NCBI GenBank assembly: GCA_035995545.1
Contig: DASYKI010000003.1
Coordinates: forward strand, 540 to 64,539
Length of the DNA: 64,000 nt
Direction of reading: 5' to 3'
From: Candidatus Dormiibacterota bacterium
GTDB lineage: Bacteria > Chloroflexota > Dormibacteria > Aeolococcales > Aeolococcaceae
The notes under the pieces are model-generated. The model was not told the DNA's origin. It did no database searches and was given only the letters and a program-made list of their open reading frames with translations. Made by a program: the position numbers and the translations under genes. Each line of letters begins with the position of its first letter. The first letter of the stretch is position 1. Positions 19,726-49,358 of this stretch are shown in pieces.

Positions 19726-19761
19726 GCGGCTTCTGCGCCAAACGCTGCATCAGGCTCGCTT

Positions 19762-30213: not shown

Positions 30214-30690
30214 GTGACCCCGCGCGAGGCGGCGGTCGCGACGGTGGAACGCGTTCTCGCGTCTCACCCCGATGTCGCGGCCCGCCGCCTCGACGGGCAC
30301 CGCTGGTCGCTGGCGCTGCCGGGAACGGTGCGCTGGAAGGTCCCCGTCCAACTCGACGTGGGCACGCGCACAACCGTCGCCATCTCCTTTCTGCTGCGCG
30401 GACCAAGGCCGCCGCACGGCGATCCGGCGGCGCTGCACCGCCTGCTGCTGCGCAAGAACCTCGCCACCCGCCGCCTCCACTTCGCCCTCGACGGCGACGA
30501 CGACGTGGTCCTGCTGGGACGCTTGCCCACCGCTGCAATCTCCGCCGAGGAGCTGGAGGCGCTGCTCGCCGAGATCCTGGTGGTCAGCGACCAGGCCTTC
30601 GAAGCGCTGGTGCACCTTGGCTACCCCGGGGTCTTCCCACCCCTGCCCGCCGTGGCGCCCCCGGGTCGGGCCGGACCGGAACGATCCTGA
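30214..30690 (+). CDS. hypothetical protein (YbjN-like, putative)
   Basis: 158 aa starting at a GTG. I see no clear motif, and the YbjN assignment is weak. Confidence 0.35.
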   Translation: MTPREAAVATVERVLASHPDVAARRLDGHRWSLALPGTVRWKVPVQLDVGTRTTVAISFLLRGPRPPHGDPAALHRLLLRKNLATRRLHFALDGDDDVVLLGRLPTAAISAEELEALLAEILVVSDQAFEALVHLGYPGVFPPLPAVAPPGRAGPERS

Positions 30691-30718
30691 CAAACAAGTA
30701 ACGCCCCCGTCGCGCCAC

Positions 30719-34544: not shown

Positions 34545-36419
34545 ATGCACGCACGACGTCGCCGCGCTTGGCGCGGCCAGGCAGGACAGGTCATGGTGGT
34601 CTTCGCACTGCTTGCCACCGTGCTGTTCGCCGTCGCCGGCCTCGCCGTCGACGCCGGCATCAGCTATCTCACCGACAACCAGGCGGAGCGCGCCGCCGCC
34701 GCCGGTGCGCTCGCCGGCGTGCCCTACATGCCCAACGGTTGGGGCAGCAGTGCCGACGGCGCCGCCAGGTCCGCGTCGGCGCGCAACGGCTTCGCCGACG
34801 GCGGCACCCGCAACGGGCACAGCGTCGCGGTGTCGCTGGCGCGCTATCCCGCCGGCTGCGGCAGCGTCGCCTCGCCGTGCGACTCCAACAAGCTCACCGT
34901 GTCGGTGACCTCGTGGGCGCAGACCAGCTTCCTGCGCATGCTCGGCTTCGGCGATCACCAGGTCGTGGCCAGCGCCACCGCCTTCTACCTGCCGCCGATC
35001 GCGCTCGGCCAGCCCGGCGCGCAGCTGGGCAGCAGCGTCGACGCCCTGGGCAGCGCCAACAACTACTACATCCTGCGCCACGAGGGCTACGGCAACGACC
35101 GCCAGGAGGGCGACGCCTTCACCCCCACCACCACGCAGCAGACCTTCAACTCCTCGAACGGCTGCGATGTCACCGAGAACACCGCGGGATACGGCAGCTC
35201 CACCGACTCGCACTCGCTGAGCGCGTCGGCGGGGACCGACGTGTCGAGCATGCCGGCACCGTACAACCCGCTGCCCTCACGCGGCGGCTACAACTACGCG
35301 ATCACGGTGCCGAGCACCGTCGCGCAGGCGTCGGTGCGTGTCTACAACCCGGCGTTCGCGCCCGACGGTGGCTACAACCCCAACCCCAATTACGGAACGT
35401 CGAGCAACTACACCCTGCACGAGCAGGACGGCAGCTTCTCCGGCAACGGCTCGACGTCGCAGTACTCGGCGCTGGAGTACACCATCTTCAAGGTGGTCGA
35501 CGTCTTCGACCACACCCAGGACGTGCCGCTGTCGCAGGTGGTCGTCGATCCCATCAACGCCGACCCCAACAACAGCAGCTACACCGACGTCAGCAACGGG
35601 CAGAGCATCCCCGCGTCGGTGGTGAGCTACGCGTACCACGGCTGGGTCGACGTCGGCAATCCCAGCTCGACGTCGTGGACCGCGGGCGGCAAGACCTACA
35701 AGCTGATCAACGTGCTGCAGTCGCTGAGCGGCGGGACGCTGGGACCGGGCAACTACCGGCTGCGCGTCGACATGCTCGACTACAAGGGGCGGCGTCCCAC
35801 CGAGGACGTCGGTGCCCTGCCCTGCTCGCGCGCGCACAAGGGCTACGCGCTGCAGCTGTCCACACCCAGGTCGGGCGGCGGCTACCAGAGCTGCAACGAC
35901 CCCGCCTGCAACGTCAGCGGCATCGGCGAGATGGCCGTCTACACGCCCATCGTCAGCAGCGGGGGGTCGTTCTCGCTGCCGGTCTTCCAGCTCTCCAAGG
36001 ACTACCGCGCCAAGACGGTGAACTTCTTCATCTTCGACCCCGGCGACGTCAGCGGCTCCAACACGCTGACGGTGGTCAACCCCGACACCGGCGCGGTGCT
36101 CACCGCCGACCCCGGCGCCGCGGTGAACATCTACGACCTCGGCGTCAGCCGCAACGTCACGCCGACGCCGTCGATGCTGGTCAACACCCTGTACCCCGGC
36201 TCGCAGCCCAGCACCACCAGGGCCAGCCTGCAGACAGTCGTCAACGGCAGCAACGTCTACAACAGCCACTGGCTGCTCTTCGAGCTGCCCATCCCCGCGA
36301 CGTACAACGGCGGCGCGGGCAGCTACTGGACACTGCAGTACACCGTCAACGGCCAGGCCGGCGACACCGTGACCCTCGCCGTCAGCTACGGCGGGTCGGC
36401 GGTGCACCTGATCAACTAG
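34545..36419 (+). CDS. TadG-like (Tad pilus-assembly) large pseudopilin; the Ser/Thr/Asn/Gly-rich beta region has no further recognisable domain
   Basis: 624 aa. The N-terminus GQAGQVMVVFALLATVLFAVAGLAVDAG is the Tad N-terminal motif. The remainder is low-complexity beta-rich. Confidence 0.55.
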   Translation: MHARRRRAWRGQAGQVMVVFALLATVLFAVAGLAVDAGISYLTDNQAERAAAAGALAGVPYMPNGWGSSADGAARSASARNGFADGGTRNGHSVAVSLARYPAGCGSVASPCDSNKLTVSVTSWAQTSFLRMLGFGDHQVVASATAFYLPPIALGQPGAQLGSSVDALGSANNYYILRHEGYGNDRQEGDAFTPTTTQQTFNSSNGCDVTENTAGYGSSTDSHSLSASAGTDVSSMPAPYNPLPSRGGYNYAITVPSTVAQASVRVYNPAFAPDGGYNPNPNYGTSSNYTLHEQDGSFSGNGSTSQYSALEYTIFKVVDVFDHTQDVPLSQVVVDPINADPNNSSYTDVSNGQSIPASVVSYAYHGWVDVGNPSSTSWTAGGKTYKLINVLQSLSGGTLGPGNYRLRVDMLDYKGRRPTEDVGALPCSRAHKGYALQLSTPRSGGGYQSCNDPACNVSGIGEMAVYTPIVSSGGSFSLPVFQLSKDYRAKTVNFFIFDPGDVSGSNTLTVVNPDTGAVLTADPGAAVNIYDLGVSRNVTPTPSMLVNTLYPGSQPSTTRASLQTVVNGSNVYNSHWLLFELPIPATYNGGAGSYWTLQYTVNGQAGDTVTLAVSYGGSAVHLIN

Positions 36420-37078
36420 ACCTCGACCAGCACCTCGACGGCCGCGTCGCGCCCGATCGCGCTGGTCGCCCCGTCGACCTCCAGCCCCAGAGCCGGACCG
36501 TCGCTGCCGGTGACGCGCACCTCGGTGCCGAGCCCGATGCCCAGCCGCTTGAGCTGGGCGAGCAGGTCGTGCTCCTCGTGGGCGATGCGCCGGACCACCC
36601 CGCTCTCGCCCTGCCCCAGGTCGCTGAGGCGGCGCAGCGCCAGGTCCGGCTCGGGGGTGCCGTCCTCCATGATCGGGTGCCCGTGCGGACACGTCTCCGG
36701 GTGCCCCAGGAAGGCGGCCAGCCGCTCGGTCACCCGCGGCGAGAAGGCGTGCTCGAGGCGATGCGCCTCCTCGTGGACGTCCTCCCAGCCGAAGCCGAGC
36801 ACGTCGACCAGGAGGCGCTCGGCCAGCCGGTGCCGCGATACCAGGGTGCGGGCCAGGTGCAGCCCGCTGGCGCTGAGCTCGATGCGGCGTGAGCCGGTGA
36901 GCAGCCCGCTGGCGCGCAGCCGGGCGACCATCTCGGTGACCGCGGCGGGGGAGACGCCGAGCTGCTCGGCGAGCTGGGTGCCCAGCACCGGTCCGCCGCT
37001 GACGGCGAGCCGGTAGATGCTGACCATGTAGTCCTCGATGGTCGAGCTGGGCCGCAGCGGAGTGGCGTGCGCGTCCAC
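36416..37078 (-). CDS. DtxR/IdeR-family metal-dependent transcriptional repressor with a C-terminal SH3-like (FeoA) domain
   Basis: The N-terminal HTH reads STIEDYMVSIYRL ... GTQLAEQLGVSPAAVTEMVARL. The metal-site residues HEEAHRLEH are present. Its stop overlaps the convergent tadG-like stop. Confidence 0.85.
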   Translation of the reverse strand: MDAHATPLRPSSTIEDYMVSIYRLAVSGGPVLGTQLAEQLGVSPAAVTEMVARLRASGLLTGSRRIELSASGLHLARTLVSRHRLAERLLVDVLGFGWEDVHEEAHRLEHAFSPRVTERLAAFLGHPETCPHGHPIMEDGTPEPDLALRRLSDLGQGESGVVRRIAHEEHDLLAQLKRLGIGLGTEVRVTGSDGPALGLEVDGATSAIGRDAAVEVLVEV

Positions 37079-37101
37079 GGTGCCGAACAGCGTAGCCGAG
37101 C

Positions 37102-37506
37102 TCAGACGGTGTCGGGCCTGAGCACCATCAGCCGCACCCGCGATGCGGCCAGGTCGCGCCCGGCGGAGTCGCGGATGCTCACCTGCCAGGCCTGGGTGCG
37201 CCGCCCGGCGTGCAGCGGGGTGGCCTCGAAGATCACCTCGGTGCCGGCGCCGGCGGCGCGCAGGAAGGTGGTGTGGTTCTCCAGCCCGACGGCCCCGTTC
37301 TCGGGGTCGTACTGCATCCCGTTGAGATGGGCGCCGAAGCTGGCCGCCGATTCGGCGACCGCGCAGTAGACGCCGCCGTGGACGATCCCGTAGGGCTGGA
37401 GGTGGCGCTCGTCGATGACCAGGCGGGCGACCACGCGGGTGGGAGAGAGCTCGTCCCAGGTCACCCCCAGGAGGTCGTTGAACCCGCCCTGGTCCTGGTT
37501 CTCCAC
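37102..37506 (-). CDS. hotdog-fold acyl-CoA thioesterase (PaaI/YbgC-like)
   Basis: 134 aa from the GTG start. The motif IVHGGVYCAVAESAASFGA is typical of 4HBT/PaaI thioesterases. The longer track ORF overlaps the upstream gene. Confidence 0.7.
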   Translation of the reverse strand: MENQDQGGFNDLLGVTWDELSPTRVVARLVIDERHLQPYGIVHGGVYCAVAESAASFGAHLNGMQYDPENGAVGLENHTTFLRAAGAGTEVIFEATPLHAGRRTQAWQVSIRDSAGRDLAASRVRLMVLRPDTV

Positions 37507-37523
37507 GCTGGCAGCCCCCGGCC

Positions 37524-38417
37524 TCAGTAGATGAAGCCGATCAGGTCGATGCTGCTGCTGGTCACCGTGCGGGTGTCGTAGACGCCGAGGCCGCGGACGT
37601 TCATCTCCGAGATCACGAAGCTGCCGTCGGGGTTGACCTTCTCGACGTAGGCGACGTGGCCCACCCAGCTGCCCCACATCACCACGATGGCGCCGGCCAC
37701 CGGGGTGTGCCCCTCGGGCCGCCCGGCGCCGCGGGCGTTGCGGTACCACATCCAGGCGTCGCCGTTCCAGCTCACATGGCGCTTGGTCGACACGTAGTAG
37801 GTGCACTGGCCCCAGGGGAAGCCGGAGTTGGAGGAGCCGCCGTGCTGGTACTCCGCCGCGGGCACGGCGGGGCGGTTGTTGGCGTTGGGGACCACCCAGC
37901 CGGAGGCGATGGCCTCGCCGCCGGCCGCCTGCGCGGGGATCTGCAGCCAGCTTCCCGCGGCCTGCGGCGTGTCGGCGCGCAGCGCGTTGTAGTCCAGGAT
38001 GATCCGGGGATCGAGCCCCAGGCGGGCGGCGAAGCTGCTCGGCTTCTCGTTGGCACGCACCTGGACCAGGGCGCCGGGGCCGGGCGGGACCAGCAGCGCC
38101 GCGCCGGTGGCGGGCTCGCTGTCCTCGGGCAGCTGGTTGGCCCAGCGCATGGCGGCGGCGTCGGCATGGAAGGACGCGGCCAGGGCCGCCAGGGTGTCGC
38201 CCTTGTTGACCACGATGGTCTGTGCCGGGCGCTGTGGAATCGACGGGGCCGAAGCGCCGCGCTCGATGGTGGCGCCGCTGCGCGAGGCGTCATCTCCGGC
38301 CGATGCCAGGGCTGGCAGCGACGGGAGGTGGCTCACCGCATGTGGCACGAGCATCGGCAGCGTCAGGGCGGCCATCACCACGAAGCCGTGTCGCAGGAAT
38401 CGCTCACGCACCGCCAA
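37524..38417 (-). CDS. secreted LysM + CHAP domain peptidoglycan hydrolase
   Basis: A signal peptide is followed by a LysM domain (IVVNKGDTLAALAASF). The C-terminal CHAP domain has catalytic Cys in GQCTYYV and His in GHVAYVE. Confidence 0.8.
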   Translation of the reverse strand: MAVRERFLRHGFVVMAALTLPMLVPHAVSHLPSLPALASAGDDASRSGATIERGASAPSIPQRPAQTIVVNKGDTLAALAASFHADAAAMRWANQLPEDSEPATGAALLVPPGPGALVQVRANEKPSSFAARLGLDPRIILDYNALRADTPQAAGSWLQIPAQAAGGEAIASGWVVPNANNRPAVPAAEYQHGGSSNSGFPWGQCTYYVSTKRHVSWNGDAWMWYRNARGAGRPEGHTPVAGAIVVMWGSWVGHVAYVEKVNPDGSFVISEMNVRGLGVYDTRTVTSSSIDLIGFIY

Positions 38418-38697
38418 TAGATATCCCTTGCACGAGTGCTGCCCTCTGCCGGATCACGCTCACCGCGCACTCCCTCCCCGCAGCGCGACCCGACCCCGGG
38501 CCGAGTGAGCAAACCGCGCCGCAGGCTACCAGATGCCTCCTAGGGAAATCAAACGTGGCCGGCTGAACTTAACCTGCGAGGCGATTGCTTTCTTCAACGC
38601 GATTGTCAGACAAGGCCCCAGGAAGGCTGGGTACCTTCGTGATAGCTTCCTAGGCACGTCTTCGACGTGTCGACCCGTGGGCGATCGGAGGTCCGGA

Positions 38698-40742
38698 TGT
38701 ACTCCCGCATCTACGTGCCGCTGGACAACTCGGATCACTCCAACGCCTGCGTCGAGGTCGCCGTCGCCCTCGCCCAGGCCTTCGGGGCGAGCTGCACCGG
38801 CAGCCACGTGTACGCCGCGCGCATGCACGACTACCGCTTCAAGCAGATGGAGTACACCCTCCCCGAGGAGTACCAGGACGAGGCCGAGCTGCTCCGCCAG
38901 CGCCGCATCCACGACTCGCTGATCACCACCGGCCTGCAGCTGATCAGCGACTCCTACACCGACGTGATGCGCTACCGCTGCCTGGAGAAGGGCGTCCCCT
39001 TCGAGGCGCGGGCCATCGACGGCAAGAACTGGGAGGAGCTGGTCCGCGACGTCCGCGGCGGGGACTGGGACCTGGTGGTGATGGGGGCGCTGGGCATGGG
39101 CGCGGTCAAGGAGTCGCGCCTGGGGAGCGTCACCGACCGCGTCGTGCGGCGGCTGCGCACCGACACGCTGGTGGTGCGCCGCACCGGCGACGACGCGATG
39201 TCGGGCGACATCGTCGTCGCCGTCGACGGCTCGCCGCAGTCGTTCGGGGGCCTGCTGACCGCGCTGTCGCTGGGCAAGGCGCTGGGCAAGCGGGTACAGG
39301 CGGTGGCCGTCTACGACCCCTACCTGCACTACGCGGTCTTCAACTCCATCGTCGACGTGCTCAGTGAGAAGGCGAGCAAGGTCTTCCGCTTCAAGGAGCA
39401 GGAGGCGCTGCACGAGGAGATCATCGACACCGGGCTGGCCAAGATCTACGAGTCGCACCTCGAGGTGGCGCGCGCGGTCGCCGCGGAGCAGGGCGTCGAC
39501 ATGCCCATCACGCTCCTCGACGGCAAGGCCTTCGAGCAGGTGTCACGGTTCGTACGCGATGTGAGGCCGTGGCTGCTGGTGTGCGGGCGCATCGGGGTGC
39601 ATTCCGACGATGCCATGGACCTGGGCAGCAACACCGACCAGCTGGTGCGGCTGGTCGACTGCGATGTGCTGGTCAGCTCGCGCACGCACGTGCCGCCCAT
39701 CGACGTGCGGGCGGACGCCGCGGTGGTGTGGACGCCGGAGGCGGAGACACGCATGGCGCGGGTCCCGGTGGCTGCGCGCGGCATCGCGCGGACGGCGGTG
39801 CTGCGCTGGTGCACCGAGCGGGGGCATAGCGTGGTGTCGTCGGGCGACGTCGAGTCGGCGCTGGACGAGCTGATGCCCTACCAGCGGGTGATGCGGCGCA
39901 TCGGCGAGGTTGCCTCGACGCTGGAGCGCGCTGAGCAGGCGATGCTGGAGGAGCCGCCTGTCGTGCAGGCGCGGGCAGTGTGTCGCGTGTGCGGGTACGC
40001 GGCCAGCAGCGAAACTCCTGTGGAGTGCCCTGTGTGCGGGGGGGCTGCGTCGTCGTTCGAGCGGATCGATGCGGCGCTGCTGCTCGCCGACGCCGCCGTC
40101 GAAGGCGATGCGGCGGAGGTGGGGTTCGACGGGCACAAGCTGGGCTGGACCATGGAGGCGCGCACGCTGCTGCACGAGCTGCCGGCGGGGTATCTGCGGC
40201 GGCGGGTGAAGGCGATCATCGAGAAGGCGGCGCGCACGCGGCGGCTGCCGGCGATCACTCGGGAGATCGTCGAGCCCTACGTGCTGCCGGAGCTGGAGGC
40301 GCTCGACGGCCGGGGGGAACCGCATCGGGCGCCGATCGTCGGCGGTGCCGGCGGCGCGGCCGCTCCTGCCGCGGGGCGGCTGCCCTGGTCGGCTGAGGCG
40401 GAGTCTCGACTGGAGCGCATTCCTGCGGGGTTCCTGCGCAACCTGGCGCGCGAGCAGGTGGAGCGGCTTGCGCTGCAGGTGCACGCGGGGGAGGTGAGTG
40501 CGCTGCACGTCGAGGCCGGCATCGCCGAGGCACGCGCGCAGATGCAGGCCGCGCTGCGCGGCCCCGGGGACGCTGTCGATGCCGGCGCGAGCGCCGGGTG
40601 TCCGGTGCACCGCAGTGATTCCGCGCCCGTGCCGCAGGCGCCGCCGTCCAACGGCGAGTGCCCGGTGCATCCCCTCAACGAAGTGACGGCCGGCGTCGTC
40701 GAGGCCCTGGGCAAGAAGTCCGCCCACGAGCAGCCCGTCTGA
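38698..40742 (+). CDS. multidomain protein: tandem universal stress protein (UspA) domains + rubredoxin-like zinc ribbon + two PCP_red-like (protochlorophyllide-reductase BchB C-terminal-like) segments + C-terminal CPVH repeats
   Basis: Usp 1 spans MYSRIYVPLDNSDHS ... GMGAVKESRLGSVTDRVVRRLRTDTLVVR. Usp 2 runs to DQLVRLVDCDVLVSS. The zinc ribbon reads CRVCGYAASSETPVECPVCGG. Repeated helical segments read LPAGYLRRRVKAIIEKAA and IPAGFLRNLAREQVERLA. The C-terminus has GCPVHRSD and ECPVHPLNE. Confidence 0.7.
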
Positions 40743-40755
40743 GCGAGCGTCGCGA

Positions 40756-42030
40756 GTGCCAGCTCCGCTAGGTCTCAACGTCTCCCTCCCGAATTGGCCG
40801 GCCATCGGCAACCAGATCCCGGTGGCCGTGATGTTCACCCTGCACATCGTCATCGCGGAGTTCAGCCTCGGCGCCATCACCCTGGCGGTGGGCATGGAGA
40901 CGATCGGCCTGCGCACCGGCAACGAGTGGCACATGCGCTACGCGCGCGCCATCGCCAACGCGTACTACCTGGTCTTCAGCCTGGGCGCCACCTTCGCGGT
41001 GTTCGCCGTCACGGCCATCATCGGGCTCTGGGGCGCGACCTGGGGAGTGCTGCTCAACCGCTTCTTCCTGCTCTTCGCCATCGCCTTCGGGCTGTTCCTG
41101 ATCCTGCTTCCGCTGCTGGTCCTGTACCGCAACAGCTTCGGCAAGATGGCGCCGCGCCGGCACGCCATGCTGGGGTGGGCGGTGTGGTTCTGGCAGACGG
41201 CGTTCATGGTGCTCATCGTCGAGCTCGACGCCTACCTCATCGACCCGGCGCACAGCGGCATCTTGGGCGGCATGGCCAACCCGCCGTACGTGCCGCTGCT
41301 GCTGCACCGCCTGGTCGGCAACGTGTCCTGGACGGCTTTGTTCCTCGCCGGTTTCGCGGTGCTGCGCATGGCGCGCAGGACCGACCTGCGCGAGCGCGCC
41401 TTCCAGTCCTGGGCGGCGCGGCTCAACCTGCGCATCGGCCTGGCCACGGCGATCGCCATGCCGCTGCTCGGCTTCGCGCTGATGGAGGTGCTGCGCACCT
41501 CGGTGCCGGGGTACTTCGACAACCTGGTGCGCGGCGACGCCTCCTACCTGTTCGTCATCCAGGCCGCGGCGCTCGGCGTGCTCTTCGTCAGCGCCAACCT
41601 GGCGCTGGCCGGCGAGGTGGTGCGCGAGCGCCGCGCCGGCCTCTTCAGCCGCGTCTGCGTCGGCGTGGCGGTGATCGGGTTCACCGTCGGCATGCTGCCC
41701 GGCGCAGTGCTCAACGGCGGCACCTTCTGGATCCGCTACGCGGGCATCGGCATCGGACTGCTGGTCACCGTTGCACACCTGCTGGCACGCAGTGCGCCGC
41801 TGCACCCCGCGCCGGTGTACCAGCCCGCGCCCGGCGCCTACGCGGTGCTGCCCTACAGCACGTCGTCGGTGGCGCGGCGCGCGCTGGTGGTCTGCGGCCT
41901 GGTGGCGGTCTCGCTGTCGCTCTACATGGGAGTGATGAAGGAGGAGGCGCGCGGCGCCTATGTGATCAACGGCGAGCTGACCCAGCAGGACGCGCACGGG
42001 CAGTGGAACCCGCAGGGGATCTACCCGTGA
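40756..42030 (+). CDS. cytochrome bd ubiquinol oxidase subunit I-like membrane protein (CydA-like, apparently no Q-loop), paralog 1
   Basis: 424 aa. Helix 1 reads LHIVIAEFSLGAITLAVGMETIGL, which matches the CydA pattern: a heme His, then about 17 residues, then ME.T. Multiple TM helices are present. It starts 14 bp after the previous gene. Confidence 0.65.
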   Translation: MPAPLGLNVSLPNWPAIGNQIPVAVMFTLHIVIAEFSLGAITLAVGMETIGLRTGNEWHMRYARAIANAYYLVFSLGATFAVFAVTAIIGLWGATWGVLLNRFFLLFAIAFGLFLILLPLLVLYRNSFGKMAPRRHAMLGWAVWFWQTAFMVLIVELDAYLIDPAHSGILGGMANPPYVPLLLHRLVGNVSWTALFLAGFAVLRMARRTDLRERAFQSWAARLNLRIGLATAIAMPLLGFALMEVLRTSVPGYFDNLVRGDASYLFVIQAAALGVLFVSANLALAGEVVRERRAGLFSRVCVGVAVIGFTVGMLPGAVLNGGTFWIRYAGIGIGLLVTVAHLLARSAPLHPAPVYQPAPGAYAVLPYSTSSVARRALVVCGLVAVSLSLYMGVMKEEARGAYVINGELTQQDAHGQWNPQGIYP

Positions 42031-42293
42031 CCGCCTTCCTCGTCCCCCTGCTGCGCGACTCCGACTTTCAGATGGCCTGGTACATCTCCGCCGTTCTCTT
42101 CGCCGGGATCGTGCTGGTCGTCTGGGCGGCGTGGCTGGTGCTGCGCCACCTGCGCGTCATCTGGCGGCGCGGCGATCACGGCCTGGCCGCGGTGCTCGCC
42201 GCCGCAACCACGGTGGCTCTGCTGATGTTCTCGTCGATGCTGGTCACCGTCGCCGTGGCGCTGTGGCCGACGGCGACCACCGGGGGCGGCTGA
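42027..42293 (+). CDS. small two-TM membrane protein, unknown function
   Basis: A GTG overlaps the upstream stop. It has two hydrophobic helices. The coding call is tentative. Confidence 0.35.
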   Translation: MTAFLVPLLRDSDFQMAWYISAVLFAGIVLVVWAAWLVLRHLRVIWRRGDHGLAAVLAAATTVALLMFSSMLVTVAVALWPTATTGGG

Positions 42294-42296
42294 GCC

Positions 42297-42797
42297 ATGT
42301 CGCTGATGTCGCGGCGCCGCTTCCTCACCCGGATGACCAACCTGGGCGCGGGGACCATCACCCTGATGCTGTCGATCCCCGCCATCGGTTTCCTGGTCAG
42401 CCCGCTGTTCCAGAAGCGCAAGGTCAGCTGGATCCGCGTCGGCGAGATCGACACCGTCCCGGTGGGGCTGCCGACTCCCTTCGTGGTGGCCATGCCGGTC
42501 GGCGAAGGTCCGGCCACGCCGCCGGTGCAGCGCGTCGTCTACGTGGTGAAGATGACCAGCGGCGAGCTGCTCGCCTTCTCCAACACCTGCACCCACATGC
42601 AGTGCAACGTGCACTGGGATCCGGCGCTCGGCCAGTACCTCTGCCCCTGCCACGGCGGGCTCTACGACATCCGCGGCAACAACATCGGCGGACCGCCGCC
42701 GTCGCCGCTGCCCGAGTGGATCCATCGCACCTACGTCGACCCCGGCACCGGCCGCACCGTGCTCGAAGTCCAGAACCAGTTCAACGAGAGCATCTGA
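42297..42797 (+). CDS. Rieske [2Fe-2S] iron-sulfur protein with a Tat signal
   Basis: The twin-arginine motif reads SRRRFLT. The Rieske boxes are CTHMQC and CPCHGG. Confidence 0.9.
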   Translation: MSLMSRRRFLTRMTNLGAGTITLMLSIPAIGFLVSPLFQKRKVSWIRVGEIDTVPVGLPTPFVVAMPVGEGPATPPVQRVVYVVKMTSGELLAFSNTCTHMQCNVHWDPALGQYLCPCHGGLYDIRGNNIGGPPPSPLPEWIHRTYVDPGTGRTVLEVQNQFNESI

Positions 42798-42798
42798 C

Positions 42799-43998
42799 GT
42801 GCTGCGCCTGGTCACCCGTCCCATGTCGCGGCGCATGCGCAACGCGTACCGGTGGTTCGACGAGCGCACGGGGAGCACCGAGCTGCTCCACAAGGGCCTG
42901 TACGAGGCGGTCCCCGAGAAGGGAGGCTGGGCCTACACGCTGGGCAGCGCGACGCTGGTGCTCATCCTGCTGCAGCTCTTCACCGGCATCTTCCTGCTGC
43001 TGGTGTACTCGCCGTCGTTCGCGGAGGGCTGGTCGACGCTGAAGTTCCTGCAGGACAGCGACCGCTTCGGCTCGTGGGTGCGTGGCATGCACCTGTGGGG
43101 CGCGTACGTGCTCATCCTGGTGATCGGCCTGCACATGCTGCGCACCTTCTTCAGCGCCTCGTACAAACGGCCGCGCGAGCTCAACTGGGTGACCGGCGCG
43201 ATCCTCTTCTTCCTGGTCATGGGGCTGGCCATCACGGGGGCCATGCTGCCCATGGACCAGGCGGCCTACTGGACGCTGGTGGTGGTGACCAACATCCCCC
43301 ACTACATCCCCTTCCTCGGCGACGGCATGCGCCAGCTCTGGCGCGGCAGCAGCGACTTCGTCGGCCAGGTGTCGCTGACGCGCACCTTCGCCATCCACAT
43401 CTGGGTGCTGCCGTTCCTCATGTTCACCTTCATCGGCGCGCACCTCTACCTGCTGCGCCGCCACGGCGAGTTCGGTTCGTGGGTGAACTACCCGACCGCG
43501 AGCACCGACCCCGAGCGCGCGGAGCACGAGCTGGGCGAGCGCATCCGCAACGCCGAGCCGCCCTATCCGGCGCGGCGCATCGAGCGGCAGTGGTCGGTGC
43601 CGCGCACCACCGTCGAGTTCTTCCCCACCCAGCTCTTCAAGGACACGGCGGTCAGCCTGCTCTTCATCACCATCATCTTCGTCTTCGGCTACCTGGTGGG
43701 TGCACCGCTCAGCGAGCAGGCCAACCCGGCGACGCTCACCTACGTGCCCACGCCGGAGTGGTTCTTCCTGCCGCTCGACCAGGTGCTGGTGCTGACTCCG
43801 CAGACGTACCTGATCTTCGCCGGCGTGGTGGTGCTGATCGGCCTGGCCGCCACCTGCATGGTCCTCCTGCCCTTCCTCGATCGCTCGCACGAGCGCTCGC
43901 CGCTGCGCCGCCCCGAGGTGCTGCTGCCCGGACTCTTCCTCACCGGGCTGCTCATCCTGCTCACCGTGCTCGGCGCCAACCGGCTGTACAACCTGTGA
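42799..43998 (+). CDS. cytochrome b (b6-like N-terminal half fused to a subunit-IV-like C-terminal half)
   Basis: 399 aa with conserved His pairs in helices B and D (HMLRTFF ... HIWVLPF). It has a PEW-like region. Confidence 0.85.
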   Translation: MLRLVTRPMSRRMRNAYRWFDERTGSTELLHKGLYEAVPEKGGWAYTLGSATLVLILLQLFTGIFLLLVYSPSFAEGWSTLKFLQDSDRFGSWVRGMHLWGAYVLILVIGLHMLRTFFSASYKRPRELNWVTGAILFFLVMGLAITGAMLPMDQAAYWTLVVVTNIPHYIPFLGDGMRQLWRGSSDFVGQVSLTRTFAIHIWVLPFLMFTFIGAHLYLLRRHGEFGSWVNYPTASTDPERAEHELGERIRNAEPPYPARRIERQWSVPRTTVEFFPTQLFKDTAVSLLFITIIFVFGYLVGAPLSEQANPATLTYVPTPEWFFLPLDQVLVLTPQTYLIFAGVVVLIGLAATCMVLLPFLDRSHERSPLRRPEVLLPGLFLTGLLILLTVLGANRLYNL

Positions 43999-44008
43999 GC
44001 ACCGCACT

Positions 44009-45481
44009 GTGAACGCCGCCAGCCTCGCCGCCACAGCGCCGCTGCAGCCGGTGCCGACGTCGCTGCTCGGCGGCCAGCTCGCCGTCGCCTTCGTCGCGTT
44101 GCTGCACACGCTGATCGCCACCTTCATCACCGGGGGATCCTTCCTCGTCGCGGTCAGCGAGGGCATCAGCATCGCGCGCGGCGACGAGCGGCACGAGCGC
44201 TTCGCCGGCGGCGTGCTCAAGGCGATGGCCTACGTCTTCGGCTTCGGCTCGGCGCTGGCCATCTTCTGGGTGGTCTTCATCCTGCTCGGCATGTGGGGCA
44301 CCTTCTTCATCGCCCTGACGCGGATCACCTTCTGGCCCTTCATCTTCGAGGCCTCGCTGTTCCTCACCGAGATCGTCCTGCTCTACACGCTGTACGCGAA
44401 CTGGCAGCGCCTGCGCGCCTACCGCAAGGTGCGCTTCGGCATGGTGATCCTGCTGGCGGTGGCCTTCTGGTGGCAGCAGTTCTTCATCGACGTCGTCGCC
44501 TCGTTCATGCTCACCCCCAACGGCGGCGACACCTCGCAGCTCAACCAGATCCTCAACCCCACCGACCTGCCGCTGACCATCCACCGCACCGCGGGCAACA
44601 TCGCCTGGGCGGGCGCGATCATCGCAGCGGTGGCGGGCGTGCGCTACCTGCTGGCGCGGCGTCGCGAGCGCCGCACCTTCGTCGACGACCCACCCGCCGA
44701 ACGCAGCGTCGGTGCCATGTCGGCGACGTGGTTCCCCGAGGCCGACCGCGCCGGTGCCGCGCACGCCGCCGCGCACAGCAACGTCGCCTTCTTCGACTGG
44801 GTGGGGACGTGGGGTGCGGTGTGGGCGATCACGCTGACGATGTTCCAGCCCTGGCTGGGCTACAGCTACGCCAAGGAGATCCAGCTCCACGCCTACCCGG
44901 CGTGGTACCGCATGATGTTCGGCGACCTCAGCAACGTCTTCCTGGTGCAGATCACCCTGCTGGGCGGCATCTTCATCCTGGGCACCGTCTTCTTCTGGAG
45001 ACGCATGCGCGCCAGTGGGTCGCGCGGGACACGAACCCAGGTGGCGATGCTGGTGCTGCTGGTGCTCGCCACCCTGCTCGCCGCGGTGCCCGCGCGTTTC
45101 GGCTGGACCTACCCCGACGTCGTCGCCGCGCACCAGGATCGTCCCTGGTGGGACGGCGGCCTGCTCAACCCCATCGGCACCATGATCCCCAACAAGGTGA
45201 TCGCGCTCATCGTGATGATGGTCTGCGCGCTGGTCTCGGTGACATCGTTCGTGCGCGCCCACAGCGCGGGCGAGGTGCGCTGGGGCGACGCCACGCGGCG
45301 CAGCCAGTGGCTGCTCGTGTCGCTGGGGATGACGGTGATGTCGATGATGATCGTGATGGGCATCATCCGTGAGCACAGCCGGCAGCCCTACCTGATCCAG
45401 GGCGAGATGACCATCCAGGGGCAGCAGATCCTCAACAGCAACGGCGCGCCGGGCACCGTGCCACCCAATCCCAACCCATGA
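44009..45481 (+). CDS. cytochrome bd subunit I-like membrane protein (CydA-like), paralog 2
   Basis: 490 aa. Helix 1 (LLHTLIATFITGGSFLVAVSEGISI) parallels paralog 1. The GTG start lies 10 bp after the cyt b stop. Confidence 0.65.
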   Translation: MNAASLAATAPLQPVPTSLLGGQLAVAFVALLHTLIATFITGGSFLVAVSEGISIARGDERHERFAGGVLKAMAYVFGFGSALAIFWVVFILLGMWGTFFIALTRITFWPFIFEASLFLTEIVLLYTLYANWQRLRAYRKVRFGMVILLAVAFWWQQFFIDVVASFMLTPNGGDTSQLNQILNPTDLPLTIHRTAGNIAWAGAIIAAVAGVRYLLARRRERRTFVDDPPAERSVGAMSATWFPEADRAGAAHAAAHSNVAFFDWVGTWGAVWAITLTMFQPWLGYSYAKEIQLHAYPAWYRMMFGDLSNVFLVQITLLGGIFILGTVFFWRRMRASGSRGTRTQVAMLVLLVLATLLAAVPARFGWTYPDVVAAHQDRPWWDGGLLNPIGTMIPNKVIALIVMMVCALVSVTSFVRAHSAGEVRWGDATRRSQWLLVSLGMTVMSMMIVMGIIREHSRQPYLIQGEMTIQGQQILNSNGAPGTVPPNPNP

Positions 45482-45918
45482 GCGCTCGCGATCTCCCCCT
45501 CGGTGCCGTGGCGGTGCGCATGCACCTCTTCAGCAGCCCGTCCTCCGAGGTGGAACGGGCGCTGAAGCCACCGTGGCCCCGGTGGATGCACCGCCTCTAC
45601 GAGCTGGAGCGACTCACCGGGGCGGCCGCGCCCGAGGAGGGGGAGGTGTCGTTGAGCGCCGCGGTCAGCGCCGTGGCCACGCGGCTGCGGCACCGGCTGG
45701 AGCTGGTGGCGTGGTGCGCGGGGGCCATGGAGGAGATCGGCTGGGAGGTGAGCATGGAGGGCGACGACGTCGTCGCCGCCAAGGTCACCCTGCCGGAGCT
45801 GGCTCGTGACGAGCTGGAATTGCACGGGATCTACGGTCCGCTGGGAGCCGTGTGCGATCTCGACGAGCACGGGATGCCGCGACTCATCGAGCGCTGGGAG
45901 ACGGCGCGTGAGCGGTGA
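45478..45918 (+). CDS. hypothetical cytoplasmic protein (146 aa)
   Basis: The ATG overlaps the previous stop. No motif was recognised. Confidence 0.45.
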   Translation: MSARDLPLGAVAVRMHLFSSPSSEVERALKPPWPRWMHRLYELERLTGAAAPEEGEVSLSAAVSAVATRLRHRLELVAWCAGAMEEIGWEVSMEGDDVVAAKVTLPELARDELELHGIYGPLGAVCDLDEHGMPRLIERWETARER

Positions 45919-46303
45919 GGGATGTGCCGCTGCTGCCGCCGCCGCGCACGTGCTCGTCGTCGAGGATGAGCCGATGATCGGGCGCATCCTGGAGCACAAG
46001 CTGGTGCGCGAGGGGCACCGCATCACCTGGGCACGCGATTGCGCGGCCGCCGCGGCTGCGCTCGACGGCGGCGACGTCGACCTTGCGCTGGTGGACGTGA
46101 CGCTCGATCGCGACGGGATCGAGTTCATGTCGACGGCGGCGACGATGTCGCGGTGCGGGTGGGTGGCCATGGTGGCGGCCCGCGACGTGGCGTCGCAGCA
46201 GCGGGCGCGCGCGGCCGGGTGCGCGGCGGTGGTGATCAAGCCGTTCAAGCCGACGGCGGTGGCGGCGCTGGTGGCGCAGCTGGTTGCGGGTGCACGGGTA
46301 TGA
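45908..46303 (+). CDS. single-domain response-regulator receiver (CheY-like)
   Basis: The receiver features are HVLVVEDEPMIG ... DLALVDVTLDRDG ... VVIKPFK. The start is uncertain; it may be the GTG overlapping the upstream gene, or the internal GTG at VLVVEDE. Confidence 0.55.
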   Translation: MSGEGCAAAAAAAHVLVVEDEPMIGRILEHKLVREGHRITWARDCAAAAAALDGGDVDLALVDVTLDRDGIEFMSTAATMSRCGWVAMVAARDVASQQRARAAGCAAVVIKPFKPTAVAALVAQLVAGARV

Positions 46304-47382
46304 CCACGCTGCTGGGTCCTTCCGGCGTTCGCGCGGTGGAATCGCCGCCTGGCTTCGACGCGGCGCAGCCCTGCGCGGTCGAGGCGGCCGGCGTGGAGCG
46401 GCGCTATCGCGGTGGCCGTGGGGTGGGACCCGTCGACGTCGCCGTGGCGGCGGGCGAGGTGATGGTGCTGATGGGGCCCAACGGGGCGGGCAAGACCACG
46501 CTGCTGCGGTTGCTGGCCACCGTCGACCGGCCGCAGCGGGGGCGGGTGCTCTGGTCGGGCGGCGGTGATGCTCGCGTGGCACGGCGCAGCCTTGGGCTGG
46601 CCCTCGACGCCACGGCGGAGGAGCCGTCGCTGAGCGGGATGCAGGCGGCGTACTTCTGGTGCCGGCAGTGGGTTGCGGATCGCGGCCAGGCGGTGAGGCT
46701 GTGCGAGGAGTCCCTGCGTTGGTTCGGGCTGTGGGACGTGCGGGACGAGCCGGTGGGGGCGTACTCGTTCGGGATGCGCCGGCGTCTCGCCTTGGTGCAG
46801 GCGCTCGCACACCGGCCGCGGCTGGCGCTGCTCGACGAGCCGACGGCGGGGCTGGACCCCGCGGGGGTGTCGGCCCTGCTGGGGGAATTGGAGACGCGCT
46901 CGCTCGCGGGTTGCGCCACGGTTGTTGCCAGCAACGACCCGAACTTCGCGGCGGTCGCGGCCCATCGTGTGGCATTTCTCGCCGGCGGGCGGCTGCTGCA
47001 GTGTGCGTCGCCCGTCGATCTGCTGAATGCTGTGGGCGCGGCGCGAGTCGCGCTGCTCGATGCACCGGGCCTCGATCTCGATGCGCTGCGCGAGCTGGCC
47101 GGGGTCGAGCGCGTCGACGCCTCGGCCGGCGGCGCTGTGGTGCGGTACCGCGACCCGGCCGTCCTGCCGCGGATCGTCGCAGCGGCGGACCACCCTGGCG
47201 GCGTGCTGCGACAGGTGCGGCTGCACGAGCCCGACCTGGCGGACGCGTTTCGCGAGCTGGCGGGGCAGGAGCTGTCGCCTGATCCTTCCAGTGTCGATGC
47301 CGGCGGCCGTCGACCCGGTGGCGCAGGGGTCGTGCGTGTCGACAACGAACGCGTCTCCCGGCGTCGGAGCCGCCGCTCGTGA
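46300..47382 (+). CDS. ABC transporter ATP-binding protein (ABC-2 type)
   Basis: Walker A reads GPNGAGKTT. The signature is YSFGMRRR, and Walker B is LALLDEPTAGLD. The ATG overlaps the REC stop. Confidence 0.8.
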   Translation: MTTLLGPSGVRAVESPPGFDAAQPCAVEAAGVERRYRGGRGVGPVDVAVAAGEVMVLMGPNGAGKTTLLRLLATVDRPQRGRVLWSGGGDARVARRSLGLALDATAEEPSLSGMQAAYFWCRQWVADRGQAVRLCEESLRWFGLWDVRDEPVGAYSFGMRRRLALVQALAHRPRLALLDEPTAGLDPAGVSALLGELETRSLAGCATVVASNDPNFAAVAAHRVAFLAGGRLLQCASPVDLLNAVGAARVALLDAPGLDLDALRELAGVERVDASAGGAVVRYRDPAVLPRIVAAADHPGGVLRQVRLHEPDLADAFRELAGQELSPDPSSVDAGGRRPGGAGVVRVDNERVSRRRSRRS

Positions 47383-48134
47383 CCGTCGCCGCCGCGCCCC
47401 CACCGCAGACCGCGGCCCTGCGCCGTGTTCTTCCTGCGGGCATGTGGACGCGCGAGTGGCTGCTCACCGTGGCCCATCCCCGCTCGCTGGCCATCAAGCT
47501 GGCCATGCCCCTTGTCCTGACCGTCCCCCTGCTGGCCGGCAGGGCGCCCACCTTCTGGGCCGGCATGCTGCTGACGGTGCTGGTCGCCATGGTCGGCGCC
47601 GTCGGCTCCGGCGTCACCCTCGCCCGCGCCCGCCAGGGCAGCCTGCTCGCCCGCCTCGCCGTCGTGCCGAGACCGCCGCACCGCGTGGTGGGCGGTTGGG
47701 TCCTCGCCGCCGCCGCGGTCGACACCGTGCAGATGCTCCCCGTCGCCCTCGCGGTCGCGCTCACCGGTGCCGCGCCCGACACCGCCCTGGCCATGCTGCT
47801 CTGCATCCCCGCGGTCCTGCTCGCGACCAACGCCCTCGGCTGCGCGCTGTCTCTGCTGGCCGGTGGGCCTGGCGAGGTGCTGCTCGACGTCGTCGTGGTG
47901 CTCGCCCCGCTGCTGTTCCTCGGCGGGCTGTTCACCGGCGTCCCCCGCGACGGCTGGCGCTTCTGGGCCGCTCGCCTCGACCCTTTCGCCTACCTGCACT
48001 CCGCCTTCGTCGGCGCCCTCGGCGGCTCACCCAGCTTCGCCACGGCGGACGTCCTCGTCGCCGCCGCCGTCACGGCGACGCTGTCGCTGCTGGCCACCGC
48101 CGCCGTCGCCAGGGCGCTGCTGGCGCGCGGGTGA
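47379..48134 (+). CDS. ABC-2-type transporter permease (6 TM)
   Basis: The GTG overlaps the ATPase stop. The whole protein is hydrophobic. Confidence 0.6.
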   Translation: MTVAAAPPPQTAALRRVLPAGMWTREWLLTVAHPRSLAIKLAMPLVLTVPLLAGRAPTFWAGMLLTVLVAMVGAVGSGVTLARARQGSLLARLAVVPRPPHRVVGGWVLAAAAVDTVQMLPVALAVALTGAAPDTALAMLLCIPAVLLATNALGCALSLLAGGPGEVLLDVVVVLAPLLFLGGLFTGVPRDGWRFWAARLDPFAYLHSAFVGALGGSPSFATADVLVAAAVTATLSLLATAAVARALLARG

Positions 48135-48141
48135 TCTTGCC

Positions 48142-48795
48142 ATGCATGGCAACAACATGCGCATCGCCGCGACCGCAGCCCTGACTGCGGCGCTGACCGC
48201 CTGCGGCGGCGGCGGCGTCGGCCTGCAGTCGGCCCTGCTCGGCCTGCCCACCGAGGCCCCGCACGCGCCGCTGGCCACGACGACGACCTACACCAGCCCC
48301 GACGGCGGCATCTACCGCAACTCTCTCCACCTCGACGTCCTGCTCGTCGGCCGCCACGACGGCCACGCCCTCGCCCAGCAGCTCGGCGCCTCCTGGAACG
48401 ACCTCGACGCCCTCGGCGACGCCACCGTGGTGGCCTTCCGCCTGCACAACACGGGCAAGGCCTTCAGCGACCCCGAGGTGCGCGACCTGCAGATCGCCAG
48501 CGACTTCGCCCCCAAGCAGGCGGAGGCGGGTCCGCTGCGCCACTACTACCACCCCACCTACGCGCTCGCGGCCGTCTCCACCTCCAAGCTCGACTCGAGC
48601 TGCCGCCCCCACCTCGACCCGGGGCAGTCGATCGTCGTCGTCCTCGTCTACCCGCCGGTGCAGGTGCCGGCCGGCGGCATCGTCTGGGGCCGCTACCAGG
48701 AGTTCGCCCTGCGCCTGCCGTCCGGTGGCGCCACGGCGCTCGGCGACGCACACCTCTATGCCGCCCTCTGCCCGAGCGTGCGGCAGCAGCCGTGA
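48142..48795 (+). CDS. lipoprotein of unknown function
   Basis: Lipobox is AALTAC. I see no other motif. Confidence 0.5.
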   Translation: MHGNNMRIAATAALTAALTACGGGGVGLQSALLGLPTEAPHAPLATTTTYTSPDGGIYRNSLHLDVLLVGRHDGHALAQQLGASWNDLDALGDATVVAFRLHNTGKAFSDPEVRDLQIASDFAPKQAEAGPLRHYYHPTYALAAVSTSKLDSSCRPHLDPGQSIVVVLVYPPVQVPAGGIVWGRYQEFALRLPSGGATALGDAHLYAALCPSVRQQP

Positions 48796-49358
48796 CCACC
48801 GCCGCCTGGGCCATCCACCTGCCCACCGCCGACCAGACCTGCATCCGGGTGAGCCTGCGCCCGCGTGACCTGCGCGACCCCTGGCCGTTCACCCTCGCTC
48901 TCAGCGAGCTGCAGGGCCTCGGCGCGGTGGGGGAGGGCAGGTTCCGCGCCCTGGGGTCGGGCCACGGCGAGCCGCTGCTCGCCTCGCAGGAGCTCACCTG
49001 GCGGGGGTGCCCGGTGCACCTGGAGACGCTGCGCGGCCGCGACGGCAGCCGCGAGGCGGCCCTGGCGCTGCCCAGCTGGGACGAGCTCTGCGACCAGAGC
49101 GACGCCGTCGAGGACGACTTCTGGGACTTGGTCGACGCCTTCGCCGCCGCGGTCGGCGCAGGACACGGCGCCATCGTCGACGGTGAGCCGCTCGCCCCGG
49201 TCCCGCCGCCCGCGGAGACCCCGGCCGCCTGGCAGCGCCTGCTCGACCGCCACCTCGCCCTGCTCGTCCCCGAGCCCATCGCGGCAGCGCTCAGCGGCTG
49301 CCACGCCGTGCAGTACCGCGACCTTCCCCGCAGCGGGCTCGCCGTCCTCCTGCGCTGA
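48792..49358 (+). CDS. hypothetical protein (188 aa)
   Basis: The start overlaps the previous stop. No motif was recognised. Confidence 0.4.
   Translation: MTTAAWAIHLPTADQTCIRVSLRPRDLRDPWPFTLALSELQGLGAVGEGRFRALGSGHGEPLLASQELTWRGCPVHLETLRGRDGSREAALALPSWDELCDQSDAVEDDFWDLVDAFAAAVGAGHGAIVDGEPLAPVPPPAETPAAWQRLLDRHLALLVPEPIAAALSGCHAVQYRDLPRSGLAVLLR

Follow-up and report, generated by a model that had tools for sequence, protein, structure and literature searches.

A conserved twelve-gene operon in Dormibacterota joins a cytochrome bd-like/Rieske/cytochrome b core of OR-N5 type to a USP-PCP_red protein and an ABC-2 transporter

We analysed a 64,000-nucleotide stretch (the window) of contig DASYKI010000003.1 from a Candidatus Dormiibacterota genome assembly (GCA_035995545.1), in which twelve consecutive plus-strand genes, G01 to G12, span positions 38697-49358 and encode a cytochrome bd-like and Rieske/cytochrome b redox core together with a set of accessory proteins. 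Open reading frames (ORFs) were filtered by codon-position G+C and their start codons inspected, the raw ORF list being noisy at a window G+C of about 71%; all twelve genes have a third-position G+C content (GC3) of 0.85-0.97. An earlier note on this DNA, made from the letters alone, had described a co-directional, tightly packed block of twelve genes here, and both our gene calls and the Joint Genome Institute (JGI) gene caller, whose calls cover a 352-kb metagenome contig containing the window, recover it. Its end at 49358 stands, and its start moves from 38698 to an ATG one base earlier. With the starts that we chose, the successive junctions measure 13, -4, 3, 1, 10, -4, -11, -4, -4, 7 and -4 bp, so that the spacing proposed in that note (gaps of at most 14 bp, or overlaps of 1-4 bp) holds at most junctions but not between G07 and G08, which overlap by 11 bp. 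The JGI caller places later starts for G02, G05, G08 and G10, leaving gaps that reach 88 bp; for G02, the longer N-terminus is backed by conservation in orthologues and by the NCBI call for the orthologue TMC47996.1. Domain searches returned the content that had been read from the translations, namely Usp, RUBY_RBDX, PCP_red, two Cyt_bd_oxida_I domains, Rieske, cytochrome b, Response_reg, ABC_tran and ABC2_membrane.

Table 1. Genes of the conserved block and the intergenic region preceding it, in window coordinates.
Feature	Position	Strand	Description
Presumed promoter region	38418-38696		Divergent intergenic region, 279 bp, 5' of G01; sole long non-coding gap adjoining the block
G01	38697-40742	+	681 aa; cytoplasmic; tandem universal stress protein (USP) domains, Cys4 rubredoxin-like knuckle, three PCP_red repeats, disordered tail
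G02	40756-42030	+	424 aa; CydA-like 'b' subunit (CydA', OR-N5b type)
G03	42027-42293	+	88 aa; small protein with two transmembrane segments, putative small subunit
G04	42297-42797	+	166 aa; Rieske [2Fe-2S] protein, exported by twin-arginine translocation (Tat)
G05	42799-43998	+	399 aa; fused cytochrome b (b6-like N-terminal and subunit-IV-like C-terminal part)
G06	44009-45481	+	490 aa; CydA-like catalytic 'a' subunit (OR-N5a type)
G07	45478-45918	+	146 aa; small cytoplasmic orphan protein
G08	45908-46303	+	131 aa; single-domain receiver, active site partly degenerate
G09	46300-47382	+	360 aa; ABC ATPase, DrrA-like, atypical H-loop
G10	47379-48134	+	251 aa; ABC-2 type permease
G11	48142-48795	+	217 aa; extracytoplasmic lipoprotein, orphan family
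G12	48792-49358	+	188 aa; orphan protein, cytoplasmic; its gene closes the conserved block

We infer that the divergent 279-bp gap 5' of G01 holds the promoter of the operon. A scan for the sigma-70 consensus found no match in this gap or inside the block, a scan that is uninformative for promoters departing from that consensus, and the 32 orthologous regions upstream of G01 yielded no convincing shared motif and no common k-mer. The block contains four weak hairpins resembling terminators, where 2.4 +/- 1.8 would be expected; tRNA and Rfam scans found nothing in the whole 64-kb window. A 69-bp gap separates G12 from the next gene, which encodes an AI-2E family transporter. Tight spacing by itself is ordinary for operons, and the strong evidence that G01-G12 form a unit is therefore its conservation in relatives. 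On that evidence the block is one operon, predicted to be transcribed as a single unit.

From an alignment of G06 homologues we collected 80 loci in species-representative genomes, mostly metagenome-assembled genomes of Dormibacterota or Chloroflexota, and placed the window proteins on them by tblastn; 39 of these loci carry enough flanking sequence for their arrangement to be scored. Twenty-three of the 39 (class 1; G06 identity 48-79%) have G01-G12 in order, with the short G03 sometimes below detection. Eight (class 2; G06 identity 36-40%) have G01-G09-G10 in front of G02-G06, and G07, where detected, lies upstream on the other strand or, as G07-G08, downstream. The remaining eight (class 3; G06 identity 39-44%) have only G02-G03-G04-G05-G06-G07, set in unrelated neighbourhoods, with G03 and G07 detected in some of these loci only. 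The junctions in relatives are equally tight (medians -11 to +3 bp). One class-1 relative, L018, shares all twelve genes and their flanking genes with the window; genes beyond G01-G12 are common to the closest relatives only, which places the boundaries of the unit at G01 and G12. G01 itself is as conserved as cytochrome b and more so than either CydA-like subunit (mean identity 69% in class 1 and 53% in class 2). A gene conserved upstream of the core in class-3 loci was considered as an extra partner and dropped; it has no Pfam match and was treated as unrelated synteny, its N-terminus resembling by eye the DNA polymerase III delta subunit.

In a reciprocal test, metagenome contigs were searched with the orphan lipoprotein G11 alone, which gave 71 loci. 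Wherever flanking sequence sufficed, the contigs so found carried G12 (50/50), G10 (49/50), G09 (35/35), G06 (26/26) and G01 (22/22), and the complete G01-G12 order was present in all 22 contigs in which it could be assessed. The gene order that the earlier note had read from a single genome is thus kept in relatives, in both the genome loci and the metagenome contigs, and this conserved linkage argues against the accessory genes being chance neighbours of the core. As the class-1 loci are of shared ancestry, it is the rearranged class 2 that lends the linkage independent support.

The two CydA-like proteins, G02 and G06, each have about nine to ten hydrophobic segments by hydropathy and match Pfam Cyt_bd_oxida_I (3.6e-8 and 8.9e-12, respectively) in the N-terminal half only, the matches ending at profile positions 203-235 of 418 (that of G02 covers 6-235). 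Single-sequence searches of both proteins against the PDB, and a profile search with G06, returned no match, and the fold was therefore settled by the G02 profile together with a fold search for G06. The G02 profile finds CydA chains in the PDB at 1e-10 to 1e-13 (9r2g_A, 8e-13; 5doq_A, 2e-10). The AlphaFold2 model of G06 (predicted local distance difference test score, pLDDT, 72.9) has ten long helices, and its ten best Foldseek matches in the PDB are all cytochrome bd subunit I (CydA/AppC), at 5e-7 to 2e-4, the next match having E = 0.09. Both routes thus lead to the CydA fold on which the respiratory interpretation in the earlier note depended, and not to an unrelated one.

Haem and channel residues divide the two paralogues. 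G06 has H33, E114, H192 and E455 in 73 of 73 sequences and E121 in 61 of 73, with the same spacing as in the OR-N5a reference from Rubrobacter (H24, E104, E111, H183, E406). G02 retains H30 (72/73), H136 (67/73), H184 (73/73) and E396 (60/73), and lacks the helix-3 channel glutamates, having hydrophobic residues of Ala/Leu type where a profile alignment sets E101 and E108 of Geobacillus CydA. These patterns identify G06 as the 'a' subunit and G02 as the 'b' subunit. A Q-loop and a ligand of the Met393 type for haem b558 were not found, the G06 model having only short loops after helix 6; as evidence from absence this is the weaker kind. None of the twelve proteins matches Cyt_bd_oxida_II (CydB), and we propose from these assignments that G02 takes the place of CydB as the partner of the putative catalytic subunit G06.

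This pairing has a published counterpart. Murali, Gennis & Hemp 2021 (10.1101/2021.01.16.426971; later ISME J) divide the cytochrome bd superfamily into the qOR, OR-C and OR-N families and describe OR-N5a/b as ten-helix CydA homologues without a quinol site, encoded as a/b pairs in operons with petA, petB and petD, and for which these authors infer quinol as the electron donor. OR-N5b shows no glutamates in their residue table, and Dormibacterota stand among the phyla that they list with OR-N enzymes. L018 makes the connection direct: its orthologues of G06 (61% identity) and G02 (53%) are TMC48000.1 and TMC47996.1, the "Chloroflexi bacterium cydA/cydA'" pair of Supplementary Table 6 in the same paper. 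G02 and G06 are 26% identical to each other (E = 9e-17), and the members of the published Chloroflexi pair 28% (9e-17). By sequence, then, the G02-G06 core clearly belongs to OR-N5a/b, which had already been catalogued in silico. The statement in the earlier note that no described system has this composition accordingly fails for the redox core, which corresponds to OR-N5a/b with petA/petB/petD, L018 encoding the very pair used as an example.

G04 and G05 are encoded between the two CydA-like genes in each of the three locus classes. G04 matches Pfam Rieske (6.6e-10), and its best NCBIfam matches are Rieske subunits of b6f and bc1 complexes; the twin-arginine pair is present in 67 of 69 orthologues and the CTHxxC...CPCHGGxY motifs in 68-69 of 69. 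The glycine, rather than serine, that follows CPCHG suggests what we take to be a low-potential Rieske centre of the menaquinol type. G05 matches Cytochrome_B (5.7e-39) and Cytochrom_B_C (5.5e-7) in Pfam and cytochrome b6 best in NCBIfam. Its four histidine ligands, H98, H112, H200 and H215, occur in 69-70 of 70 orthologues with b6-like spacings of x13 and x14, and the Qo-site motif PEWF in 66-68 of 70. With these ligands and motifs kept in no fewer than 66 of some 70 orthologues, both proteins are cofactor-competent, as their earlier assignment had supposed. None of the twelve proteins contains a CxxCH motif for c-type haem.

Two small proteins accompany this core. G03 (GC3 0.93) has two hydrophobic segments, and tblastn picked it up in 16 of 22 loci of class 1 and in some of class 3; where sequence similarity fades, an ORF of 76-86 residues fills its slot. 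For G07, tblastn gave matches in 56 of the 80 loci, spread over the three arrangements, and missed it in several class-2 and class-3 loci; its position is either downstream of G06 or upstream on the opposite strand. It has no match in Pfam, NCBIfam or the PDB, where profile searches gave chance-level hits only. Its family comprises only 38 representative clusters among 1.84 billion proteins, all of them stand-alone proteins of 62-186 residues except for one 1,672-residue protein matched only locally. Both G07 and G12 have a PWP motif near residue 33, and paralogy of the two was considered; an hhalign probability of 0.13 led us to reject it.

The first gene of the operon encodes its most composite protein. 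G01 matches Pfam Usp twice (7e-33), PCP_red in three stretches (5.5e-23) and RUBY_RBDX at 27.4 bits, just above the cut-off of 26.5. In its AlphaFold2 model (pLDDT 77.8), residues 1-330 match tandem USPs at E~1e-15 by Foldseek; Rv2623, UspE and the ATP complex of TTHA0350 (3cis, 4r2j, 3ab8) are among the matches, as is TeaD. The nucleotide motif G-x2-G-x9-G-S is invariant in both USP halves: its glycines (G130/G133/G143 and G297/G300/G310) are invariant in both G01 alignments and its serines (S144, S311) in one. Four cysteines, C429/C432/C444/C447, also invariant, form a CxxCG...CPxCG knuckle like the Fe(Cys)4 site of rubrerythrin. The PCP_red repeats, of which longer orthologues have two additional copies, match the C-terminus of protochlorophyllide reductase subunit B. 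The protein ends in a disordered, low-complexity tail with the motifs GCPVH (635-638) and ECPVH (655-658), 20 residues apart (window 40599-40671); CPxH occurs in the tail of 71 of 114 G01 homologues and elsewhere in them only twice. These Cys-Pro motifs resemble the haem-regulatory motif of Irr, Gly-Cys-Pro-Trp-His-Asp; they are a lead towards a candidate haem link. A GCPVH in G12 was considered as a counterpart of the tail motif and dropped, since it is not conserved in orthologues.

Homologues of G01 occur beyond class 1 in class-2 clusters, as solitary copies and in a different Rieske/cytochrome b operon. The solitary paralogue, seen in several Dormibacterota genomes (L082, L083 and L086, at 10001-11926 / 8001-10007), lies directly after argCJBD-argR-argGH with no respiratory genes nearby and is about 60% identical over the USP domains, the knuckle and the first PCP_red repeats. 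In the different operon (L084/L085, 3284-15965), genes for a Rieske protein, a split cytochrome b6 and subunit IV, a multihaem cytochrome c of 962 residues and a protein resembling CarboxypepD_reg are followed by those for a G01 homologue of 55% identity, an ATPase of Mrp/NUBPL type, a protein of 183 residues with PCP_red only, CopD and an enzyme that combines radical-SAM, SPASM and PCP_red. This appears to be another type of Rieske/cytochrome b operon, equipped with PCP_red-based helpers of its own. From these gene neighbourhoods, the recurring partner of the G01 family looks like a Rieske/cytochrome b complex, and its recurring company resembles genes of cofactor maturation.

The receiver G08 (Pfam Response_reg, 3.5e-12) always adjoins G07 where it is present. 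The putative phospho-acceptor D63 is kept in 38 of 41 sequences and K114-P115 in 40-41 of 41; the Asp of the acidic pair is found in only 27, and Thr at the Thr/Ser switch position in only three. None of the twelve proteins of the conserved block is a kinase. About 6 kb upstream of the block, at 30218-32419 (+), a hybrid sensor kinase with GAF, HisKA, HATPase_c and receiver domains is a candidate phospho-donor for G08. In four class-2 loci (L061, L064, L067, L070) G07-G08 are followed by a gene of the chlorite-dismutase family (HemQ/ChdC-like), and a Crp-family regulator gene follows the core; in L070 (11963-13516) the HemQ/ChdC-sized gene overlaps G08 by 4 bp. With four loci, these neighbours of G07-G08 are a hint, not a rule.

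G09 is an ABC ATPase (ABC_tran, 2e-24) whose best NCBIfam matches, drrA and then ccmA, both fall below their cut-offs. Its Walker A and B motifs and catalytic Glu do not vary; at the H-loop, 48 of 50 orthologues have Asn (N212) instead of His, and YS[F/Y/L]GM takes the place of the LSGGQ signature. G10, with about six hydrophobic segments, matches ABC2_membrane (1.1e-11) and adjoins G09 in class 1 and class 2 loci. In L087 (15287-16744) the ABC ATPase and the ABC-2 permease of the cluster form a single fused protein of 485 residues, in which the ATPase has lost its C-terminal extension; upstream, on the opposite strand, is a gene for a PCP_red-only protein of 173 residues. The call of G11 as a lipoprotein, made already from the single sequence, is borne out by its orthologues, the lipobox Cys21 being present in 12 of 12; TSPDGGIYxN is invariant and the cysteine pair C154/C210 conserved. 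G12 has invariant E88, W111, D115, D130-G131-E132 and H154. Neither G11 nor G12 has a match in Pfam, NCBIfam or the PDB, where profile searches gave chance-level hits only.

The reading that we favour, with moderate confidence, is that the block encodes an OR-N5-type quinol:O2 oxidoreductase, probably using menaquinol, together with its own helper genes, which would serve maturation and/or control. It starts from the gene identities, the cofactor ligands, the fold, the orthology to a published OR-N5 example and the co-inheritance of the genes described above. Quinol would be oxidised at the Qo site of the Rieske/cytochrome b module (G04, G05) in the fashion of bc1 and b6f complexes, and the Rieske cluster would pass electrons directly to the periplasm-side haem b of the CydA-like heterodimer, a direct transfer to which the lack of any c-type cytochrome in the block points. 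O2 would then be reduced at the di-haem site of G06, and the whole might run a Q-cycle with a higher proton yield. That a bc-type module supplies a bd-type one with no c-type cytochrome between them is what Murali et al. had already deduced, and the conserved ligands described above support it. In Nitrospirales, OR-N5 genes lie behind alternative complex III (ACIII), another quinol-oxidising module, which fits a role as terminal acceptor. G03 and G07 may be small subunits or assembly factors of the core, and the genes added in Dormibacterota-like lineages, G01, G08, G09/G10, G11 and G12, may form a dedicated maturation and/or control module for a complex rich in haem and Fe-S. On the cytoplasmic side G01 would handle or sense a cofactor, coupled to the ATP state, and the outer face would be the place of action of the exporter and the lipoprotein, as CydDC, CcmAB and NosDFYL suggest by analogy. 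A part for the ABC-2 pair in maturation or cofactor export, which the earlier note had floated, is plausible; it rests on strong co-occurrence, which indicates no substrate.

Several observations weigh against this reading. No OR-N enzyme has been purified or characterised, and oxygen affinity is stated to be unknown (10.1101/2021.01.16.426971; PMC12342949), so that O2 reduction here is extrapolated from the CydA ligands; there is no Met ligand for haem b558. Loci of class 3 imply that in some lineages the core can do without the extra genes, or that these lie at another site in the genome, and the class-1 loci share ancestry within one broad lineage, which inflates their counts. Among the helpers, no relative of known function is detectable for G07, G11 or G12, and G09, without its H-loop His, may turn over slowly or behave as a switch-like ATPase. 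CPxH is absent from 43 of the 114 members of the G01 family and from 18 of 29 longer forms, and paralogues of G01 (~60% identity) also occur alone, 3' of an arginine-biosynthesis operon.

Some of these same features would suit a different account, in which G01 and G08 act as a post-translational switch that senses ATP, redox state or haem and switches the respiratory branch or the exporter on and off in starvation or hypoxia, like Rv2623 or TeaD. The tandem USP has an ATP-binding fold and motifs, with the transporter regulator TeaD among its fold matches; a rubredoxin-like Cys4 site and Cys-Pro motifs are of kinds typically used in sensing; the Asp and Lys of the receiver are retained, and a hybrid GAF histidine kinase lies 6 kb away. 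Solitary paralogues elsewhere in genomes are also what one might expect of general regulators. Yet the acidic pocket and the Thr/Ser switch of the receiver are degenerate, the conserved block has no kinase, and in the second Rieske/cytochrome b setting the genes around the G01 homologue, which include those for an Mrp-type ATPase and a radical SAM enzyme, look like genes for maturation enzymes. We consider the switch rather unlikely as the explanation of these genes, although regulation and assembly do not exclude each other. Even with a helper set devoted to assembly, the core need not be an oxygen reductase: it could serve another acceptor such as H2O2 or NO, or be a haem-b conduit, within a quinol-linked detoxification or alternative redox system. 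Against this stand the equivalents of CydA His19, Glu445, Glu99 and Glu107, invariant or nearly so in 73 sequences of G06, and for it the want of a characterised OR-N member of known oxygen affinity, the missing b558 Met ligand and quinol site, a 'b' subunit that keeps its His ligands and may bind extra haems, and a stress-protein domain in the operon. Canonical cytochrome bd also has peroxidase-type side activities, and to that extent this alternative, which we hold to be unlikely, overlaps with the oxidoreductase that we favour.

It is also conceivable, though we think it quite improbable, that G08-G12, and perhaps G01, are functionally unrelated to the core, for example a drug or lipid exporter with a lipoprotein, and share its transcript merely through a gene order particular to their lineage. 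The ABC pair is generic and DrrAB-like, below every curated cut-off; class-3 loci do without these genes, and the ancestry shared by the class-1 examples, all of one broad lineage, inflates their number. Against this, the ABC pair remains in the cluster in a second, rearranged order at G06 identities of only 36-40%, G11 is never found away from the oxidase genes in the 26 assessable contigs, the overlapping junctions are kept in relatives, and conservation of the genes flanking G01-G12 stops at the closest of them. At the other extreme, the favoured reading can be extended to a specific proposal, which we put forward tentatively and regard as doubtful in its entirety: that G01, the exporter with its Asn H-loop, G11, G12, G07 and the degenerate receiver constitute a dedicated cofactor-trafficking and checkpoint system for the Rieske/cytochrome b complex. 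PCP_red would work beyond chlorophyll synthesis, as a general module for handling tetrapyrroles (haem), the Cys-Pro tail would sense haem, the USP domains would gate the system by ATP, and in other lineages the family would serve different Rieske/cytochrome b complexes. These alternatives and the oxidoreductase with its own helpers are not all mutually exclusive.

Elsewhere in the window, the divergent genes upstream of the operon (36416-38417, minus strand) encode a DtxR/IdeR-type iron-dependent repressor with FeoA, a 4HBT thioesterase and a LysM-CHAP peptidoglycan hydrolase. Of these, the repressor and hydrolase were looked for in relatives, where their conservation reaches no further than L002 and L018, the two nearest full-length loci; an iron regulator beside a haem/Fe-S operon may or may not be meaningful. 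Weak signatures of TadE/TadG-like Flp-pilus assembly proteins lie at 34545-36419 (+) and upstream of it. On the minus strand, 17899-19749 encodes a 616-residue protein with a near full-length match to DUF6909 (705 bits), adjoining a gene for a NicO nickel/cobalt transporter at 19571-20992; a Ser/Thr protein kinase gene (6777-8534, minus strand) and a CorA gene (9923-11011, plus strand) are also present.

Bd-like oxidases of the OR-N family are widespread in uncultured soil and nitrifying bacteria. The locus offers a compact, conserved and complete gene set, a six-gene core with six helpers, that could be synthesised and expressed, and the helper genes may be what assembly in a heterologous host needs. 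If a Q-cycle does feed a bd-type site, such an enzyme would, with neither copper nor c-type cytochromes, conserve more energy for each electron than cytochrome bd does, and this would be relevant to the persistence of Dormibacterota in nutrient-poor soils. The link of the USP-rubredoxin-PCP_red protein to two Rieske/cytochrome b operons, for its part, gives a testable function to a domain known only from protochlorophyllide reductase.

Compared with known systems, the block shares with canonical cytochrome bd (CydAB with CydX/S and CydDC) the fold of subunit I, equivalents of His19, His186, Glu445, Glu99 and Glu107, a small extra membrane protein and a genetically associated, putative ABC exporter. 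Unlike it, the block has no CydB, no Q-loop and no equivalent of Met393, and has a second CydA-like protein instead; electrons presumably enter its enzyme via the Rieske/cytochrome b module, and its putative exporter is an unrelated ABC-2 half-transporter pair rather than CydDC. With the bc1 and b6f complexes it has in common a Tat-dependent Rieske protein (CTHxxC/CPCH) and a four-histidine cytochrome b with x13/x14 spacing and PEWF. It lacks a cytochrome c1, f or cc subunit, however, and has the b6 and subunit IV parts fused in one protein; it is therefore not a canonical bc1 or b6f complex, though it probably oxidises quinol in the same way. The actinobacterial bcc-aa3 enzyme, an obligate III-IV supercomplex, is likewise a quinol oxidase that joins complex III-like and terminal oxidase parts, but there the oxidase partner is of the haem-copper type and here it is of the bd type.

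For the helper genes, the nearest parallels are CydDC, CcmAB and NosDFY with the lipoprotein NosL, ABC exporters encoded with metallo- or haem-enzymes and needed for their assembly. CcmA is the second-best NCBIfam match of G09, below the cut-off, whereas by sequence none of G10, G11 and G12 belongs to CcmB, NosY, NosL or CydDC. G01 resembles the tandem USPs Rv2623 of M. tuberculosis, UspE of E. coli and TTHA0350 of T. thermophilus in the fold of residues 1-330 and in both G-x2-G-x9-G-S/T nucleotide motifs, from which ATP binding is predicted; it differs from them in long conserved helical insertions in each USP half and in 350 extra residues that hold the Cys4 knuckle, the three PCP_red repeats and the Cys-Pro tail.

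The closest relatives of the whole are the OR-N5 systems themselves. In the ACIII-OR-N5 clusters of Nitrospirales, OR-N5-type CydAA' is encoded directly downstream of ACIII (PMC12342949); the quinol module there is ACIII and here a Rieske/cytochrome b module, and the USP/ABC-2 set is unreported in that article's account of the clusters. The OR-N5 operons of Murali et al. come nearer still, for the block too has two paralogous CydA-like subunits without a quinol site, channel glutamates in the 'a' subunit only, and Rieske/cytochrome b genes between them; in the lineage of the window, the 'b' subunit has His136 where the Rubrobacter reference has Asn137. The text and supplement of that paper (10.1101/2021.01.16.426971), its operon-context Figure 1 aside, name only petA, petB and petD beside the pair and do not mention G01, G03, G07, G08, the ABC-2 pair, G11 or G12; part of the accessory set may already be drawn in Figure 1. 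Literature searches on the PCP_red domain, OR-N5 and Dormibacterota respiration returned no description of the extended twelve-gene operon. What appears to be new relative to these systems, then, is the twelve-gene composition, the tight, exclusive linkage of the orphan genes to the core, the three locus architectures and the link between the USP-PCP_red family and Rieske/cytochrome b complexes.

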